Assembly (NCBI GenBank): GCA_030390025.1
Contig: JASTWF010000034.1
Location: forward strand, 2,852,001-2,916,000
DNA: 64,000 bases
Origin: Squalus acanthias
Lineage: Eukaryota
Direction of reading: 5' to 3'
In this document: piece by piece, positions 1 through 15,355 of the stretch
How the letters are laid out: each line of letters opens with the position of its first letter
How positions within the stretch are numbered: position 1 is the first letter of the stretch
The notes under the pieces: model-generated
Database searches by the model: none
Told to the model about the DNA's origin: nothing
The model's input: only the letters and a program-made list of their open reading frames with translations
Translations under genes and position numbers: made by a program

Positions 1-521
1 TCCATCTATAACTACTTTTTTGCCTACGTCCTGCCATCCAGTTCTGAATCCAGCTCAATATATTACCACTAATACCAGAGTATTTGATCTTATAGAGAAG
101 CCTCTTATGCGGTACCTTATCCACCAACTTTGTAACTTCTTCAAAAATACAATTAGATTTGTAAGACATGACCGCCTTGTTATGAAGTAATGTTGGGTGT
201 CCCTAATATGACCCTCTCTATCCAAGTATTCATATATTGCATCCTTAATGATTCCTTCAAGCATATTACCTATTACTGATGTTAAACTAATGGGCCTATA
301 CTTACCCGGGTCTGTCTTGTCACCTTTTGTAACGATGTGGACTACATTAGCCTCCTTGCAGTCTACAGGAACCATTCCAGAGTGCAGTAAGGTTTTAAAA
401 ATACAGGCTCGGGTCCAGCAAAGCACATGCCCCATCTCCCTGAGGACTGTCGAGTGGATACCATCCGGCCCGGCTGCTCCATCTATTTTCAAGTTCTTAA
501 TTATTTCTAAAACAATCTGTG
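1..521 (-). mobile_element. Degenerate CR1-type LINE ORF2 fragment (RT region), split by the Gypsy insertion; continues at 4965-~5470
   Basis: Minus ORF contains GPDGIH...KTDPGKYRPISLTSV...SCLTNL, typical of CR1 ORF2. Confidence 0.85.
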
Positions 522-715
522 TTTGGTAACACAATACAGCTTCCTGTGACTCGAACTTTATTGCATCACTTCCTGTGATTAGTCCAGGATAAATACTGGA
601 CTGATCAGTTGGATCCTGGAGAGGCATAGAGTAAGACCTCTTTTGTATGTAGCACCTTTTTAGTTGATTAAAGCTTACTTTAAGTTCACCACGCGTAAGG
701 CTCATTCTTACGACA
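522..715 (+). repeat. 5' LTR of the Gypsy element
   Basis: Direct repeat of 4771-4964; starts TT (TG in the 3' copy) and ends CA. Confidence 0.95.
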
Positions 716-793
716 ATTTAATCAACTTTGAAAAACTTCGCACTCAAACTTTTTAGACGAACTCGGAACTAAGGATCCAGGGAATCACCCATC

Positions 794-3700
794 ATGGAAA
801 ACATCCTTAAACCATCGCGTCTTGACTTGGACCCAAACACCCCAGCAGCGGTAAGGTGTGGAAACACTGGTATCGCACGTTTGACAATTTTCTCGAATAT
901 TGCAATGCTGATGGTGACTCAAAGTTGCGGATACTCATCAACTGTGTCACCCCGAATGTATTTCAGTATGTGGAGGAATGGGGCAGTTACGAGAAGGCAA
1001 TTCGGACGCTTAAAAGGCTATATACTAAGACACCGAATGAGGTCTATGCCAGACATCTACTAGGTACAGCCCAACAAGGGCCGGAGGAATCCATTGATAA
1101 ATTCCTCCAAGAGCTTCGCAGACTTAGTATGGACTGTAACTTTCAGGCGGCCTCAGCTGAGCTGTACCGTGAAGAAATGATCCGTGATGCTTTCATCTGC
1201 GGGCTTGCCTCCCCATTTATACGCCAGCGTCTACTGGAAAGTAAGACACTTGAGCTTCAGAGAGCTTATGACATGGCTTGCTCTCTAGATCTGGCAAAAA
1301 GAAATGCAGACCTTTATACAGTGCCCAGACCTCGGTCTGCTGCCTTAACTACAGTCAGGCAATTTAAGAGGCCACAGGTGAACTCTATTAGGGAGGACTT
1401 TATCCCTGACGATCAATCTGATGACTTCACTGATGAAGAGGATGATGACCCCACTGTGGCAGCCTCTTGGCAATCTAAGAAATGCTTCTTTTGTGGTGAT
1501 GAGTTTCACCCTCGGAAATTCTGCCCTGCTCGCAATGCGTTTTGCAGTCATTGCAACAAAAAGGGTCATTTTGCAAAGGTTTGCCTATCAAGAGCCTCTA
1601 CGAGGGCTTATCAAGCTAAGTCCTACCGAACTGCCCCGGTAAGGGCCTATCAAGATGTTCCGGCTAAAATCTATCGTGCTTCCTCTCGGGTTTTCTCTCG
1701 AAGAAACACACCTAGAGTTTCAGCCACTCTTTGTGCAACGACACCAATTACAGCTGCTTGTCCTCAGAACCTATTCCATGCAGCTACAAAAGCATCAATT
1801 AATGGACATACTTTAGATGCCTTAATTGACTCAGGTAGCACTGATAGTTTCATTAGGGAACAGATTGTTGCAGAGTTAAAGCTACATGTTTTCCCATCGG
1901 ACCAGGCAATTGCGATGGCTCAGTCATCACTTAATACCAGAATTTCTGGCTTTTGTATGGTTGAAATAACACTTAATGGTCACAGGTATCCCTCCACCCG
2001 GCTTTCGGTGCTCAAGGACTTATGTAGTGATCTTATCTTAGGGCTGGATTTTCAAAAGCAGCATAAGAAGCTCACCATTGAGTTCGGCGGATCCAAACCT
2101 GAACTCACTATTTCTAATATACGACCTCGATTACCGTTCTGTGCATTGTCAGCAGCTTCACTGGATGAACCTTCACTGTTTACCAGTATCCCTCCTCGAT
2201 GCAAACCGATTATAACAAAGTCACGACGTTTCAGTCAGGAAGACCGGTCTTTTATTGCGGCTGAGATTTCTCGGCTTTTAGCAGAGGATATCATCGAGTC
2301 TTGTTCGTCGCCATGGCGCGCCCAGGTCGTTATTGTTAAGAACCCTCTACAACCTCACAAGAAACGGCTGTGCATTGACTATTCACAGACCATCAATCAA
2401 TATACGGACTTGGACGCATACCCATTGCCGCGCATCGATGATATGGTTAATAAACTGGCTGAGTACATGGTGTTCTCAACATATGATCTGAAAAGTGCCT
2501 ATCATCAGGTACCCTTGAAGGTCTCAGACAAGCAGTATACGGCCTTTGAAGCCAATGGACGGCTGTATCAATTTCGTCGCCTCCCCTTTGGGGTCACTAA
2601 TGGAGTGGCTGTCTTCCAGCGAGCAATGGATGACCTGGTCAAACAGGAAGACTTGAAGGATACGTTTCCTTATCTGGACAATATTACTGTCGCAGGTCGG
2701 AATCAGCGGGAACATGACGCCAATCTCAACGATTTTGGGATGCACTCCAGCACCGTAATTTGACATTAAATGCGGCTAAATCCATTGAGTCACAACCAAC
2801 CATCAACATCCTTGGCTATTGTGTGGGCAATGGCATCATTAAACCTGACCCTGAAAGGCTTCGCCCACTCCAAGAACTCCCGCCACCTAAGAATCCGGCC
2901 TCCTTGCGCCGGGCCCTCGGTCTGTTTGCATACTATGCTAAATGGATTCCTAACTTCTCGGACCGAATCCAACCTCTACTGAAGGCCAGCACATTCCCAC
3001 TAGACACAGCGGCTGTTGCAGCCTTTAACCTCCTGAAAAAACAGTTGGAGAAAGCGGCTCTTCACTCCATCGATGAGAGTCTTCCTTTTGTTGTTGAGTG
3101 TGATGCCTCGGAGGTGGCGATCTCGGCCACTCTGAATCAGGAAGGTCGTCCGGTGGCATTTTTGTCCAGGACTTTTCAAGGGGCTGAGCTACATTATCCT
3201 CCAGTCGAGAAAGAAGCTGCAGCCATCATAGAGGCAGTACGGAAGTGGAGTCATCTCCTAGCTCGCTAGCACTTTACCTTAATCACGGACCAGCGATCGT
3301 TCGCCTTCATGCTCGATAATCGTAAACGGACCAAAATTAAAAATAATAAAATCCAGCTTTGGTGGCTTGAATTGGCCTCTTTTGGTTACACCATCCACTA
3401 TCGACCTGGCAAGGAGAATGTGGCTCCGGATACCCTCACACGAGCATTCTGCTCCGCCATGGCACCCTGTACGCTCGTAGACATCCATGATGGGTTGTGT
3501 CATCCGGGCGTTACTCGCATGCTACACTTCGTGCGGTCCCGAAATCTCCCATTCTCTACCGGGGATGTAAAGAAGATGTGCTCGGACTGCAGAGTCTGTG
3601 CGGAATTGAAACCTCAGTTTTTCCGCCCCTCGGGTGGTATACTCATACATGCGACCCAGCCAATGCAACGGCTTAGCATCGATTTTAAGGGGCCGTTGCC

Positions 3701-4749
3701 CTCTTCAACTCGCAACACTTATCTATTGACCATGGTCGATGAGTATTCCCGTTTTCCGTTTGCCTTTCCCTGCCCCAATATGCTGACGACCACGGTTATC
3801 AGCTGCCTTGAGCAGGTGTTTGCTTTCTGTGGCATGGCATCCTTTGTTCATTCGGATCGGGGCCCTTCTTTTATGTCAGGAGAACTCAAGGCCTATCTCT
3901 CGGAACGGGGGTATTGCTGCCAGCAGAACGACGCCTTATCATCCGGTCGGGAATGGGCAAGTCGAGCGTTTTAACGCTATCATCTGGAATGCGGTACGTC
4001 TGGCTTTGAGATCTCGGGGCCTACCCAACCAGCAATGGGAAGCAGTACTTCCAGACGCATTACACTCCACACGGTCCCTCCTTTCGACCGCCACAAATAC
4101 GACGCCTCATGAACGGTTCTTCCGATTTCAGCGTCGCTCATCCTATGGGATATCTCTCCCGTCGTGGCTGACTGCACCGGGACCAGTGCTACTCCGAAGA
4201 TATGTCCGGGCGTCTAAGAATGACCCCCTGGTAGATGAGGTTGAGCTCACTGACGTCAACCCTACCTACGCCTATATTCGGTATCCTGACGGTCGGGAAT
4301 CTACCGTGTCATTGCGGGATCTGGCTCCCTGCCCGCCGAAACATAGAGGGACACCAGGGGATGATATTGTACCAGGCACATCTCTGGGCTCGCCAGGTGC
4401 CTCTCATCACAATCTGGATCTGACGCCGGCTGGTACCTCACTCCAGCGTGCCGACCTGGGGCAGACTGACTATGAGCCCGTCGGGGCTCGCACGCGCAGC
4501 CACGATCCACCCCGTACCGTACGCTCGGAAACGGATCTGCCACAGCCCTGCCCGACACCCGTTCGGGCACCAGTACACAGTCAGGATCGTCCTGACCCCT
4601 CACAGAGCGGGCTGGATCACTCGGACTCTGGTCCACGGACCGCGGCGGGTAAACGGTCTAGGGGCCCTCTACCGCTACGAGAACCCAAACGGGTGTGGCT
4701 CTCCCTCGTCCGGCGGCTACGAAATGGAGGGAGCATCCCGGCCTCCTAA
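794..4749 (+). pseudogene. Gypsy gag-pol polyprotein with frameshifts (~855, ~2740, ~3905) and an in-frame stop (TAG 3267-3269)
   Basis: Zinc knuckles CFFCGDEFHPRKFC and CSHCNKKGHFAKVC; protease ALIDSGS; RT DLKSAYHQ/LPFG/YLDN; RNase H ECDAS..EKE; integrase H-H-C-C, DFKGP, SDRG, GQVERFN. Confidence 0.93.
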
Positions 4750-4770
4750 TATTTTGGGGGGGGGGGAGAA

Positions 4771-4964
4771 TGTGGTAACACAATACAGCTTCCTGTGACT
4801 CCAACTTTATTGCATCACTTCCTGTGATTAGTCCAGGATAAATACTGGACTGATCAGTTGGATCCTGGAGAGGCATAGATTAAGACCTCTTTTGTATGTA
4901 GCACCTTTTTAGTTGATTAAAGCTTACTTTAAGTTCACCACGCATAAGGCTCATTCTTACGACA
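4771..4964 (+). repeat. 3' LTR of the Gypsy element
   Basis: TG...CA termini, preceded by a G-rich PPT and followed by TSD CTGTG. Confidence 0.95.
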
Positions 4965-5470
4965 CTGTGCATCTATGTTAATACAGGTTTGGTTAGAAAC
5001 ATTTTTAAATTCTAATAGTTGAACATCATCTTCAAGGTTGAAGACTTTAGTAATTCTCCGACTCTTCACAACTGAAAAAGCTTTCCCCATTGCTCCCACA
5101 GTTGTCTAAAGTCTTTTTTTCCATGAACCAGTCAGCCACCTTGGCCTTTTCTTACCATATTTCCTTCTTTTGAATTTGGGCACACATTTGTTTTCCACAT
5201 TTTTTATCTTATTCTTAAAAACTTTCCATTTATATTCTACATCGGTCTCATTAGCCAATTTACCCGTTCCAAATCATCTGCCATTTTGGTGAGGTTTGCT
5301 CTTCTGAAATCTGGTACGAGTTGCAGGTTCTCAGTACCTTTAGTTTTATTTCCAGTTGGAACCGTAGAATGCTGTGGTCACTGTTGACCAGATGTTCCCC
5401 CACATGGAGACCCGATACGAGGTCAGGCTCACTTCTAAATATTAGATCCAATATATGATTATCCCTGGTT
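4965..5470 (-). mobile_element. CR1 ORF2 fragment (endonuclease C-terminus/linker), upstream part of the 1-521 element
   Basis: Minus ORF DLIFRSEPDLVSGLHVGEHLVNSDH resembles the AP-endonuclease SDH motif. Confidence 0.75.
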
Positions 5471-5479
5471 ACTTCATTA

Positions 5480-7755
5480 CAGATAAAGAGTGAAGTTCGC
5501 TCTACAGTGTATCAAACACACCCAAGGCAGGTATAGCACCAGTTAGACAAAGAATAAAGCTCCTTCTACATTGCACCCATCAGCTGCAGCACCGGTTAGA
5601 TACAAAGTAAAGCTCCCTCGACGCTTTCACATCAAGCACTCCCAGGACAGGTACAGCACTGGATGGAAACAACGTGGTGTTCGATCGACACGGTCCCCAT
5701 CAAACAGTCCAGGGCTATTTAGCACCAGTTATACATCGCTCCAACAAATTCTCCCAGGACAGGTATGGCACAGTTTAGATACAAAGGAAAGATCAAGGCT
5801 GATCTTCGACCTCAACTACAAATTCCCGCCCGTTCTCCATATCACTTGAATCTACTTCGAGTCCAAAAATCTATCTATCTATCTGCCTTGAATATACAGT
5901 ACTCTACGATTCAGCATACACAGCACTCTGGGAAAGAGATTTCCAAAGATTTACAAACCTCTGAGTGAAGACATTCCTCCTCATCTTAGGCTGAATAATG
6001 GCCGACCCCTTATGCTGAGACTGTGACCCCTAGTTCAGGACTCTCCAGCCAGGGGAAACAACCTCTCAGCATCCACCCTGTCAATCCCCGTCAGAATCTT
6101 AAATGAGATCACCTCTCATTCTTCAAAACTACAGAGAGTATGCAGCGTAGAGGGAACATTGAGAGTGACAAGTACCATTTTACCAAATGTCAACTGTAGA
6201 TGTCCAGGAGCTGACATTGTGACAAACACGGTCAGTATGGTATCAGACGGGTCTGAATCGTTCCATTTTAGAAAAACACTCCCGGGGCAGGTACAGCACG
6301 GGATAGATAAAGGGTAAAGCACGCTCTACACTGCCCCATCAAACACTCCCAGGGCAGGAACAGCACGGGTTAGATACAGAGTAAAGCTCCCTCTACACTG
6401 GCCCATCAAACACTCCCATGGCAGGTACAGCACGGGTTAGATACAGAGTAACCTCCCTCTACACTGTCTCATAAAACACTCCCAGGCCAGGTACAGCAAA
6501 GGTTACATACTGAGTAAAATTTCACCTATACTCCCCATCAAACACTGCCAAGGCAGGTACAGCACAGGTTAGATAAAGGGTAAAGCACGCTCTACACTGC
6601 CCCATCAAACACTCCCAGGGCAGGTACAGCACGGGTTAGATACAGAGTAACCTCCCTCTACACTGTCCCATCAAACACTCCCAGGCAAGGTACAGCAAAG
6701 TTTACATACTGAGTAAAACTTCAGCTATACTGCCCCGTCAAACACTCCCAGGGCAGGTACAGCACAGGTTAGATACAGAGTAAAGCTCCCGCTACACTGT
6801 CCCATCAAACACTCCCAGGGCAGGTACAGCACGGGTTAGATACAGTGTAAAGCCGTCTCCACACTGTCCCATCAAACACTCCCAGGACAGGTACAGCACG
6901 GGTTAGATAAAGGGTAAAGCACGCTCTACACTGCCCCATCAAACACGCCCAGGGCAGGTACAGCACGGGTTAGATACAGAGTAAAGCTCCCTCTACACTA
7001 TCCCATCAAACACTCCCAGGGCAGGTACAGAACGGGTTAGATACAGAAGTAAAGCTCCCTCTACAATGTCCCATCAAACACTCCCAGGGCAGGTACAGCA
7101 CGGGTTAGATACAGAGTAAAGCTCCCTCTCCACTGTCCCATCAAACACTCCCAGGGCAGGTACAGCACGGGTTAGATACAGGTTAAAGCTCCTACAAAAC
7201 TGTCCCATCAAACGCTCCCAGGTAGTTACGGCATGGGTTAGCTAGTGGGTAACGTTCCATGTACACTGTCCCATCAAACAATCCCACAGCAGTTACAGCA
7301 CCGGTTAGATAGAAAGTAAAGCACTCGCTACACCGTCCCATCAACAACTCCGAGGGCAGGTACAGCACAGGCTAGTAACAGAGCAAAGCTCCCTGTAAAC
7401 TATTCCATGAAACACTCCCAGGCAGGTACAGCACGTTTTAGATACAGAGTAAAGCTCCCTTCCCATTCTTCAATCAAACACTCACAGGACAGGTGCAGCC
7501 TCAGACAGTTGCCAGGGAGAGAGAAGCAGCGTGGAGACATACGGGCAGTACAGTACCAGATGAGAGTGAATAGTTCCTTTTAATCAATGTTTAATGATAC
7601 ACGTACAGGAGCTGACACTGAGACGACACACACGGGACAAACAGGTACGGTATCAGAAAGGGGTGAATAGTTCCCTTTTAAAAATTCACTCCCAAGGTAG
7701 GTACTGCACGGGTTAGATGCAGAGTAAAGCTTCCTGCACACAGTCCTCCCATCAT
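5480..7755 (+). repeat. 67-bp tandem satellite (TACACTGTCCCATCAAACACTCCCAGGGCAGGTACAGCACGGGTTAGATACAGAGTAAAGCTCCCTC); best conserved 6275-7500; interrupted by a CR1 3' fragment at ~5790-6130
   Basis: CAGCACGGG recurs at 6361 and 6428 (period 67). Confidence 0.9.
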
Positions 7756-11755: not shown

Positions 11756-11784
11756 TACTCTCAGGGCAGGTATAGCACGGATTT

Positions 11785-12355
11785 ACCTGCGAGTCTTTGA
11801 TGAGACAGTGTGGAGGGAGCGTTGCTCTGGATCTAATCCCGTGCTGTACCTGCCCTGGGAGTGTTTGAAATGACAGTGTAGAATGAGTTTTACTCTGTAT
11901 CTAATCCCGTGTTGTACCTGCCCTCTGAGTGTTTAATGGGACAATGCAGAGAGAGTTTTGCTCTGTAACTAATCCTGTGGTGTACCTGCCCTCTGAATGT
12001 TGTTGATGGGACAGTGTAGAGGGAGTTTTAATCTGTATCTAACACGTACTGTACCTGACCTGGGAGTGTTTGATGGGACAGTGCAGAGAGAGCTTTACTC
12101 TGTATCTATCCCGTGCTGTACCTGCCCTGGGAGTGTTTGATGGGACAGTGTAGAGAGAGCTTTACTCTGTATCTAACCTGTGCTGTACCTGCCCTGGGAT
12201 TGCTTGATGGGACAGTGCGGAGAGAGCTTTACTCTGTATCTATCCCGTGCTGTACCTGCCCTGTGAGTGTTTGGTTGGACAGTTTAGAGGGAGCTTTGCT
12301 CTGTATATTACCCGTGCTGTACCTGCCCTGGGAGTGTTTTATGGGATAGCGTCGA
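11785..12355 (-). repeat. 67-bp satellite in inverted orientation
   Basis: Reverse complement of the 5480-7755 unit (GTGCTGTACCTGCCCTGGGAGTGTTTGATGGGACAGTGTAG). Confidence 0.9.
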
Positions 12356-12859
12356 GGGAAATTCAAAGTGAGAGATGTAGAGATTTCAACAAATAAAGAA
12401 TTATAAAGAGATGAAGGAAAGGTATAGAGAGATACAGACATATAAAGCAAGAAACAGATAAATAGAGATTCATATACAGAGAGCCACATAAAGAGTGAGG
12501 TTCAGAGATATACAGAGAGGGAGAGATACAGAGATATAAAGAAAGCTGTAGAGATACAGGACACGCCTCTTTGACTGTACAGCCTGCGTTTGTATCCCAC
12601 TGGCCCCAAATGTAACCAGGGACCCTCACCGCCTGTCTCCCCAAATTTAAATAAAGCATCTTTCATTCTTACATTTCATCACTCCCAAATTCCCAGAGAA
12701 CCAGTGAGAGAAACTGGGGACCAGAACGCAGATAGTGAGAAATACATAGACAGCGATCAAGAAAAGAAGTAGAAAGATATACGGAGAGTTACAGCTGCAG
12801 AAAGAGATTAAAAGAAAGAGAGAGATGGGGGAATAAAGATAAAAATATAGCCGCAAGAG

Positions 12860-13230: not shown

Positions 13231-13612
13231 GGAGATACAAAGTAAATCTCACTCTGCACTGTCACATCAAACACTCACAGGCAGGTACAGGTTAGATAAA
13301 GAGTAAAGCTCCTTCTACACAGTCATATTAAACACTCCAAGGGCAGGTACAGCACACGATAGATACAGAGTAAATTTCGCTCTTCATTGTCCCCATTAAA
13401 TACTCCAAGTGCAGGTACAGCATGGGTTAATTACAGTTAAAAGCTACTTCTACACTGCCTCACCAAACATTTACACGGCAGGTGCAGCACCTGTTAGGTA
13501 ACGGGTAAATCTCCCTCTGCACTGTGCCATCAATTTCTCCCAAGGCAAGTACAGCAGGAGTAAAGCTCCCACTACCCAATCCCACCAAACACAGCCAGGG
13601 CAGGTACAGCAT
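13230..13612 (+). repeat. Degenerate 67-bp satellite units (more at ~13885-14020)
   Basis: Repeated CAAACACTC..GGCAGGTACAGCA..GTTAGATAC..GTAAAGCTC. Confidence 0.75.
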
Positions 13613-13774
13613 AGACCTTCCCTTTTGTTCTTTCCTCCCATACCCTCTTTTCCCTGCCTCTGTACTTGTTTAAAATCTGTTACATCAGTAACATTTTCCA
13701 TTTCTGATGAAAGGTCATCGACCTGAAACATTGACTCAGTTTCTCTCTCCACAGATGCTGCCTGACCTGCTGAG
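13612..13774 (+). mobile_element. Penelope-like element 3'/pLTR fragment with a decayed hammerhead motif
   Basis: CTGATGA-A-AGGTC-ATC-GACCT-GAAA-CA-TT at 13704-13732; homologous to 39241-39372. Confidence 0.7.
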
Positions 13775-15355
13775 CAATGTTCCCTGGAAGGTTCTTGGCC
13801 GCGCAGCGATCTGTAAGATCCTGCGCAATTAAATTCATAGTTCGCACAGTGAGCTGGAGCTGGTGGAGGGGCCCAATACCCAAACACCCGGGATGCAAAG
13901 TAAAGCTCCGTCTGCACTGCCACATCAAATATTCCCCGGGCAATAATAGTACGGGTTATATAAAGATTAAAGTTCTCTGCACTGTCCCAATCAAATGCTC
14001 CCAGGGCAAGTACAGCACTGATCCCAACTCATCGCCAGGGCTGGGGAGAGATAACCTCGCCGCCTTCTTAGCAAGTTTAACCATGTTACTCACTTTCTGA
14101 TTTGAACTCCGTTTGGAATTAAACTTTATTTTACTTTTTTTGTTGTATGTTTAACGACAGCATTGAAGGGGGAAATAGAAACTTGGAGCAACTTCTTCTG
14201 TCAAAGCTGCAATGAGACTTGAAAGAATTTAAAGATTTTTAATGAACTTTTCACAATAAATGAGTGTTAAAAACATTTTTCCCCCCTAAGTTTTGAATAT
14301 CATTTTTGGAAGAAACAGAAGCAAAAATCAATTTCCTCCTCATCTAAACAAGTTTCAACCAGGTCTTGAAGTCCAAACGTTTTTAAAGAGGTTCTGAAAT
14401 GCTTAAAATGTTTTAAAATTGAAATTACTCAATTTTTGATTGTGAGCGATCAAGTGAAGTGAGTAGCTTTACACAAACATGCAACCATGGTGTTGAGGAG
14501 GGGGAGGGCAGGGGAGGATTTGTAGGAGTTAAATACTAATTTTAAATGAATTTTAAAAAAATATACCATTAAGACATATAGGAAGAGAACGAAAAAATGG
14601 AAAAACACAAAACCTTTTATTTTGCCTGTCGTTCTGTAGTCCTAACAAGTCACAGGAATAATGTAAATGTAGATTTCCTCTTAAACATTTAGGGAAGTGT
14701 TAACAGAAACAAGAGATATATAATGATGTAAAAAAATTGCAGGAAACTATTTTATTTGTTTATTGAGAAAGACACAGAAAATACTTTGATTAAACTGATA
14801 ACGTACAATTCGATTGAATGTTTGATATAGGAGATGAAAAATTGTGAGTTCAATGAAGTTTGTTCCCCGCTTTTAATTGTGAAGTACCTAAAATAATTCA
14901 ACATTTTTCTTGATAAGAGCAGGGAATAATATTGTGGAGAATGTTTGAGAGAAAAACACTAGGAGCGAAATTGGTAAATTATAAATCTTCACATCAACAT
15001 ATGAGTAAACATTTCCTAGTCAGTCTGACTGGTTCTTCTGTCCAGAAAGAAAGGCAGATGTTTATTTCTGTTAAATCACAGTTTTTCCTGCTTTTTGTTT
15101 ATAATTCAGTGACACAAATTGTGTATGTGTTTTTCTGCAATTGTGAATAAGTGCTGCATTTCTCACCTATTACATGGGTGGTGTGCTGGTTCAAGAAGAC
15201 CACGTTTATTCATGGAAGTTATTGAAGTTGAAAATACGGATACCCATTTTGTTCAGTTCTTTTTAATATTGTGAATTAAAGAACTACAGCACTTTATATT
15301 TGTTGATTGTCTGGTTGCATTGTGATTAATATTCTAATAACTTACGTGGACGTAA

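Follow-up and report, generated by a model that had tools for sequence, protein, structure and literature searches.

A chromodomain-less Gypsy family of Squalus acanthias with a clade-wide pairing between LTR and leader that probably serves Tf1-like self-priming

The window, by which we mean the whole stretch of 64,000 nucleotides analysed here (Squalus acanthias, assembly GCA_030390025.1, contig JASTWF010000034.1, positions 2,852,001 to 2,916,000 of the forward strand), carries close to its start a Gypsy LTR retrotransposon (Table 1). The element has the LTRs, target-site duplication (TSD), polypurine tract and gag-protease-reverse transcriptase (RT)-RNase H-integrase order of Ty3/Gypsy elements, and its best match in the PDB is the RT of Ty3. 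Gag holds two knuckle-like motifs, the CCHC spacing in the first being below canonical, and a profile search of the integrase tail at E<=1 returned neither a chromodomain nor SH3_Tf2-1, in keeping with the earlier note on this DNA, which had seen no evident chromodomain. There are four differences between the 5' and 3' LTRs of this copy, and its open reading frame is damaged by frameshifts near 850, near 2740-2760 and near 3910, and by a stop at 3267-3269. It is embedded in a decayed LINE-like fragment on the minus strand (1-521 and 4970-5450), which we take to be of CR1/L2 type. Elsewhere in the window, a 67-bp repeat forms arrays in either orientation (6267-7500, 11768-12377 and 13237-14038), and there are other tandem arrays with units of 27, 32, 33, 51 and 14 bp. 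A scan of viral contigs gave no match.

Table 1. Features of the element and its leader, in window coordinates
Feature	Position	Strand	Remarks
TSD CTGTG, left copy	517..521		5 bp, repeated at 4965-4969
LTR retrotransposon, Gypsy	522-4964	+	4,443 bp
5' LTR	522..715	+	194 bp; first bases TT (TG in 3' LTR), last bases CA
AGCTT microhomology in U3	538..542	+	joined to R-U5 (672-676) in four dead insertions elsewhere
TATA-like word, GATAAATA	588..595	+	sole such word upstream of the arm; putative function
TTAGTT, A662 predicted +1	660..665	+	A at -11 in 12/17, G at -10 in 15/17 families
LTR arm, predicted self-primer	662..672	+	11 nt
ATTAAA poly(A)-signal variant	667..672	+	3' end of arm
Predicted hairpin	673..685	+	immediately behind the inferred cut site
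Predicted U5 hairpin	694..712	+	adjoins primer site; not kept across families
Unpaired base between LTR CA and primer site	716	+	same CA+1 register in 27 relatives
Putative primer-binding site (PBS)	717..727	+	complement of 662-672; without TGG
gag-protease-RT-RNase H-integrase	794..4749	+	two CCHC-type knuckles in Gag; without chromodomain
Polypurine tract	4756..4770	+
3' LTR	4771..4964	+	194 bp; second arm copy at 4911-4921
TSD CTGTG, right copy	4965..4969

Attention had been drawn to the leader of this element by two claims, that no TGG-type PBS follows the 5' LTR, which ends at 715, and that an 11-nt site just beyond it is complementary to the LTR itself. Both held: TGG is absent from 716-735, and AGTTGATTAAA (662-672) is the exact reverse complement of TTTAATCAACT (717-727), with mismatches at either edge of the helix (T661/T728 and G673/A716). 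Of 20,000 dinucleotide-shuffled versions of the LTR, 4 gave a match of at least 11 nt starting 0-5 nt past its end, and with both sides shuffled the figure was 6 of 20,000. This helix dominates the predicted fold at every RNA start tried between 600 and 663, with a mean pair probability of 0.90-0.92 for starts from 600 to 662, and the fold predicted from 655 offers extra potential pairing of 657-661 with 731-735 beyond a 3-nt bulge. Rfam returned no match. As a control, 20 other Gypsy regions of the same genome were inspected, seven of which, belonging to another lineage, had a readable LTR end: all seven have TGG within 5 nt, and a self-match of just 0-7 nt. TGG-primed elements of this genome, presumably Mag-like, share only 29-37% RT identity with the window element. 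In U3, a perfect 7-bp inverted repeat with TCCAG-type arms (582-599) flanks the TATA-like word.

The family to which the window copy belongs is young and large. The genome contains 2,232 exact matches to its LTR-PBS junction; the 150 copies scored out of 13,170 candidates had 99-100% RT identity, and a single 1,325-aa open frame is present in many of the other copies. Both 11-mers are intact in 18 of the 20 copies fetched, the exceptions being L046, in which a deletion in the 5' LTR removes the arm, and L053, which has no 5' LTR. One copy with an unbroken 1,325-aa frame (L002/L038, G000:C2671:4750400-4755700) is a second copy of the window insertion itself, with the same flanks, inverted and 1.9 Mb off on the same contig, reflecting either a segmental duplication or an assembly duplicate. 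A subfamily with 183-bp LTRs (L040, L054, L055 and L065-L067; about 794 LTR matches), whose LTR pairs are identical in most copies, has A at -12, counting back from the arm's 3' end, extending the helix to 12 bp. In six copies (L059-L064) the frame is longer, at 1,417-1,636 aa, and Gag and RT lie farther apart by as much as ~780 bp, apparently through in-frame expansions within gag. At G000:C1:566513-575076, three LTR-PBS junctions are spaced at exactly 4,247 bp, the length of the element minus one LTR, such that this tandem array shares single LTRs, as is described for Tf1/Tf2 in passages of PMC11042837. Searching the Squalus genome with a ray protein returned the window element's family alone.

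Whether the pairing is kept was assessed in relatives from a metagenome scan. Of 80 loci, 39 were removed before counting (33 without a Gag start, four with an odd Gag-RT distance and two with too little upstream DNA), leaving 41 usable relatives at 52-68% RT identity. A perfect inverted repeat of at least 11 bp lies upstream of gag in 32 of these 41, matched by 0-1 of 40 shuffles, and in 27 of the 32 the LTR-complementary site, of 11-21 bp, stands in the same CA+1 register, this CA being the LTR end in relatives that have both LTRs. The five out of register comprise three single-mismatch or CA-mutated versions of the helix and two other repeats. Among the nine relatives with less than 11 bp, a decayed helix is visible by eye in three (L086, L122 and L136) and none in six, five of which have a damaged Gag start. 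The helix is distributed over the entire RT tree (43 rows, with one excluded for stops), a tree of relatives only. Protein relatives are assigned to hosts among the corals, crustaceans and insects, plus a nematode, a mollusc, a tunicate and a ray, and no chromodomain was found among the 25 commonest families across 20 aligned relatives.

Together with the window element, the 27 relatives in register make 28 sequences that fall into 17 families, with RT nucleotide identities of 53-79%; these are related, such that counts across them are not independent. The 17 families carry 16 different 11-mers, only two of 272 crossings between families yield a perfect match of arm and site, and a single position can show up to four pair types; positions 1-11 are paired by the selection of loci, and it is the crossings and pair types that are informative. 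Across families, then, the pairing is kept with different letters. The earlier note had asked for a covariation test across copies of the family; there, none of ten variants was compensated (two are possibly one locus), a sample uninformative at such depth. Over 16 positions, 254 pairs are Watson-Crick and four G-U. Family-specific pairing extends beyond the 11-mer to -16 (67/85, against 36.7 by permutation; 0/20,000), then falls sharply at -17, from 12/17 to 5/16, and stays at the background level from -17 to -22. Two permuted contigs were added beyond the 17 families: the closest relative, L068 (RT 77%), has 13 bp with one compensated change at -5 relative to the window, and L092 has about 16 bp of pairing by eye. 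The pairing is confirmed as a real, clade-wide feature.

The spacing of arm and PBS is only 36-66 nt. The arm ends in AATAAA or ATTAAA in 13 of the 17 families and in other hexamers in four, while two families (the L083 group and L095) retain the helix with AATAAA placed in the loop. A pyrimidine-purine step occupies -12/-11 in 9/17 families, and +2..+4, at the predicted hairpin behind the arm, have a 3-nt partner in 13/17, a raw count with no shuffle baseline. We considered the conserved YAG (-12..-10) as a candidate 3' splice site and set this aside, as the pairing spans the would-be junction. L140 has a second 11-bp arm complement upstream in U3, plus a decayed match to the PBS. A search for the generic arm-PBS pattern gave nine matches against 15 in the reversed control, none of them related by pairing.

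Dead insertions of the window family provide a second type of evidence, as fossil footprints of aberrant reverse transcription. Four TSD-flanked insertions, with four distinct internal deletions, have both LTRs shortened to 60 bp, U3 base 17-21 being fused to 672-676 via AGCTT. Since the first strand transfer is where a change shared by both LTRs originates, the strong-stop DNA would have ended at this point. At two further independent loci, an inverted U3 end is fused to 672, bringing to six the dead insertions whose R-U5 starts at 672-676, right behind the arm, whereas no case was found for any of four other junctions at microhomologies of 5-6 nt, including two at 660-666. Only six junctions, against the 2,232 in the genome, have a base other than T at PBS+12: three inverted-U3 continuations, two T-to-A changes in whole elements and one deletion. 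That this position is mismatched in all but these copies suggests the usual primer in this family is at most 11-12 nt long. In the three continuations the PBS runs on as an exact inverted copy of U3, to 617 in L225, to 556 in L227 and to the LTR start in L230, which argues that a polymerase extended the arm:PBS duplex. The inverted copies in L225 and L227 are 56 and 117 nt long, and their own LTRs lack that sequence, hence a second molecule or 3' LTR RNA would have been the primer or template there; L230 has two U3 ends and a TSD matching at 4 of 5 positions, and is a fold-back product.

Break scans, filtered such that they see part of all breaks, were directed at three positions chosen by the analyst. 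At 673 they returned six short LTRs, the two inverted-U3 loci and one point change; at 662, eight point changes, a one-LTR deletion and L268, a copy without TSD or LTRs that spans 661/662-4663; and at 684, two one-LTR deletions. A stricter scan for breaks at 662 returned none. Together, the footprints are suggestive of an RNA that begins at about 662 and is cut at about 672/673, although the reduction of the PBS to one base in L257 means the cut could be one base earlier. Separately, two independent LTR-sized insertions (L272 and L273, at G000:C18:68560318 and C399:16188) contain a piece of U3 in inverted orientation, which switches at the palindrome (window 582-620) and retains two extra PPT-side bases, suggesting a 2-nt extension at the U3 end of the linear DNA.

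These observations make it very likely that elements of this clade prime reverse transcription from their own RNA in some form, and probable that they do so in the manner of Tf1, with a fragment of ~11 nt from the RNA's 5' end in place of a tRNA. The tRNA-independent self-priming suggested earlier is thus supported by the retention of different letters in a fixed register, the lack of a tRNA-type site, and the footprints behind the arm. Transcription would start at or near A662, and the first ~11 nt of the RNA would pair onto 717-727. By analogy with Tf1, the RNase H of the RT would then cleave the RNA at about 672/673, and the new 3' end would be extended across 716 and U5 up to the cut end at 673, generating a strong-stop DNA that would move on to the 3' LTR and its copy of R. 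Later, the primer would be copied back into the PBS during plus-strand synthesis, thereby keeping the two 11-mers matched. The pairing would also hide ATTAAA at the 5' end only, the 3' LTR being without a partner. In retroelements, the 3' end of the primer must sit where the end of U5 is defined; the fixed CA+1 register is at this position.

A start at 662 is predicted, and fits both the conserved AG at -11/-10, within what is presumably an initiator-like (Inr) motif, TTAGTT, and the beginning of L268; against it, pairing to -16 exceeds an RNA beginning at -11, and the TATA-like word would indicate a start near 620 rather than 662. We infer the cut directly behind the primer from the six R-U5 insertions and their empty controls. 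The scarcity of G-U pairs would fit copying of the primer into the PBS better than selection for an RNA hairpin. Further observations count against Tf1-like self-priming: the 11-bp repeat is lacking in nine of 41 relatives and displaced from the register in five of 32; near 662 (one) and 684 (two) there are one-LTR deletions of the ordinary kind as well; no within-family variant is compensated; a long primer or a second molecule was used at least in L225 and L227; and of the Tf1 'pretzel', the pair of flanking duplexes was not found. Some of this could be reconciled if the 5' 11-mer were the normal primer in the window family, with occasional long primers or fold-back gradually adding a few bases to the PBS, and if cutting of the 3' arm removed the R acceptor and led to mis-jumps.

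The pairing to -16 and the sharp fall at -17 are also what would be expected were the primer a longer RNA, either the 3' LTR's arm (in the same genome or a second one) or a 5' fragment of a transcript begun upstream, with the cut behind AUUAAA and ~16 nt copied before its removal. The inverted U3 copies behind the PBS in L225 and L227 would fit such a primer, and a strong-stop end at 673 would equally follow from a start site at 673. However, the mismatch at -12 is almost never corrected in the window family; A672/G673 is a poor start context, compared with the Y-R at -12/-11 in nine of 17 families; the long inverted copies accompany failed strand transfers, that is, dead products; and mis-jumps ending at 662 were not found in the junction searches at 660-666. 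We regard this as unlikely, though other families may use a long primer as a matter of course.

The earlier note had also suggested that the helix might mask the poly(A) signal, and this stands as a plausible second role, likely a side benefit, but not as the sole one. Were masking the only function, with another primer in use, the hexamers at the end of the arm in 13 of 17 families and the presence of a partner only behind the 5' LTR would be readily understood. Nevertheless, the helix is kept in the two families that have AATAAA outside it, meaning masking alone does not explain the pairing, and a canonical hexamer is missing from the end of four of the 17 arms. Furthermore, masking needs neither the fixed CA+1 register nor such a scarcity of G-U pairs, a different primer site was not seen, and the footprints at 672-676 are left unexplained, making this reading very improbable.

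Less credible still is priming at 717 by half a tRNA or another small RNA of the host, with the LTR match being secondary, although half-tRNA priming is known in Copia lineages according to passages of PMC6317226. There is no site of the tRNA 3'-end type in any of the 17 families; as regards half-tRNAs, the comparison covered 17 tRNA sequences of only four isotypes (Lys, Thr, Cys and Leu), among which the best match, internal stretches included, was 7 bp by Watson-Crick pairing or 8 with G-U, and the best matches fell in doubtful intron-containing predictions. The 16 different 11-mers in 17 families each track their own LTR. Least credible is that the match is a functionless by-product of DNA-level fold-back (quasi-palindrome correction), as, although L230 is a product of the fold-back type and such events could perfect an inverted repeat, the fixed register and the priming of thousands of young copies without a tRNA site would both go unexplained.

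If Tf1-like self-priming operates here, the consequences extend beyond this family. Tf1 has been shown to self-prime, and this ability is regarded as characteristic of the Tf1/sushi chromoviruses; its use by a widespread animal lineage without a chromodomain would imply either that it originated a second time or that it is far older. Such a clade would be invisible to annotation that relies on tRNA-based PBSs, may be beyond the reach of silencing by 3'-tRNA fragments, and would have priming tied to the choice of poly(A) site. The chances seem to us evenly poised on a fuller picture, in which a large non-chromoviral Gypsy lineage found across animals would prime independently of Tf1/sushi, using the segment with the poly(A) signal as primer, such that one helix would prime, silence the 5' poly(A) signal and be rewritten each cycle, with the 3' arm acting as a second, long primer and the mis-copied products mapping the cut to 672/673. 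As the family is young and has thousands of copies, its start site, cut site and primer length are directly measurable in native tissue. Among the papers searched, which included few subscription titles and no Repbase reports, none described self-priming in an animal Gypsy clade outside the chromoviruses; Repbase entries are said to mention self-priming for some insect Gypsy families.

Neither protein cluster names nor the ESM Atlas gave a name for the clade, and SH3_Tf2-1 matches were of no use as a source of chromoviruses, none of the 16 fetched regions holding an RT. The element resembles Mag and Micropia/Mdg3, which have two CCHC arrays in Gag according to passages of PMC2577118, in this feature, in its short length and LTRs, and in an animal-wide range. 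However, Culex Mag elements prime with tRNA-Leu/Ser/Arg, as part of PMC3286476 describes, and the Squalus element lacks a tRNA PBS of this kind.

The closest functional parallel is with Tf1/Tf2 of Schizosaccharomyces pombe, and with Tj1 and Tosmo, which likewise have a PBS just past the LTR CA that is complementary to a stretch of the LTR. The primer of Tf1 is the first 11 bases of its RNA, which RNase H cuts off between bases 11 and 12 (passages of PMC7175516). A single gag-pol frame is also common to Tf1/Tf2 and the Squalus family, and the Squalus array is similar to the tandem copies of Tf1, which share one LTR, the Tf1 cDNA keeping a single-stranded PBS (passages of PMC11042837). The Tf1/sushi group has as its common traits self-priming, a chromodomain and a three-duplex 'pretzel', with a chromodomain in all seven fission-yeast elements (passages of PMC10085805), whereas the Squalus element has no chromodomain and two CCHC-type knuckles. 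Under a coarse test, a 'pretzel' leader was not evident, as the loop-leader duplex reached z<-2 in 2/17 families and the loop-end duplex in 1/17. Further differences lie in the arm, which here usually bears a poly(A) hexamer at its short distance from the PBS, and in the named hosts, those of the protein relatives being corals and arthropods together with a nematode, a mollusc, a tunicate and a ray. Hence, by the features examined, chromodomain and pretzel, we would not file the element with Tf1/sushi, even though it appears to work like Tf1. Self-priming has also been predicted, from sequence alone, for Tcn1 and for the TAR (Houba, Osr-1) Ty1/copia elements of plants, according to passages of PMC6317226. 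TAR belongs to Copia, while Tcn1 is chromoviral, and both are from plants or fungi; together they show that self-priming can occur outside one clade.
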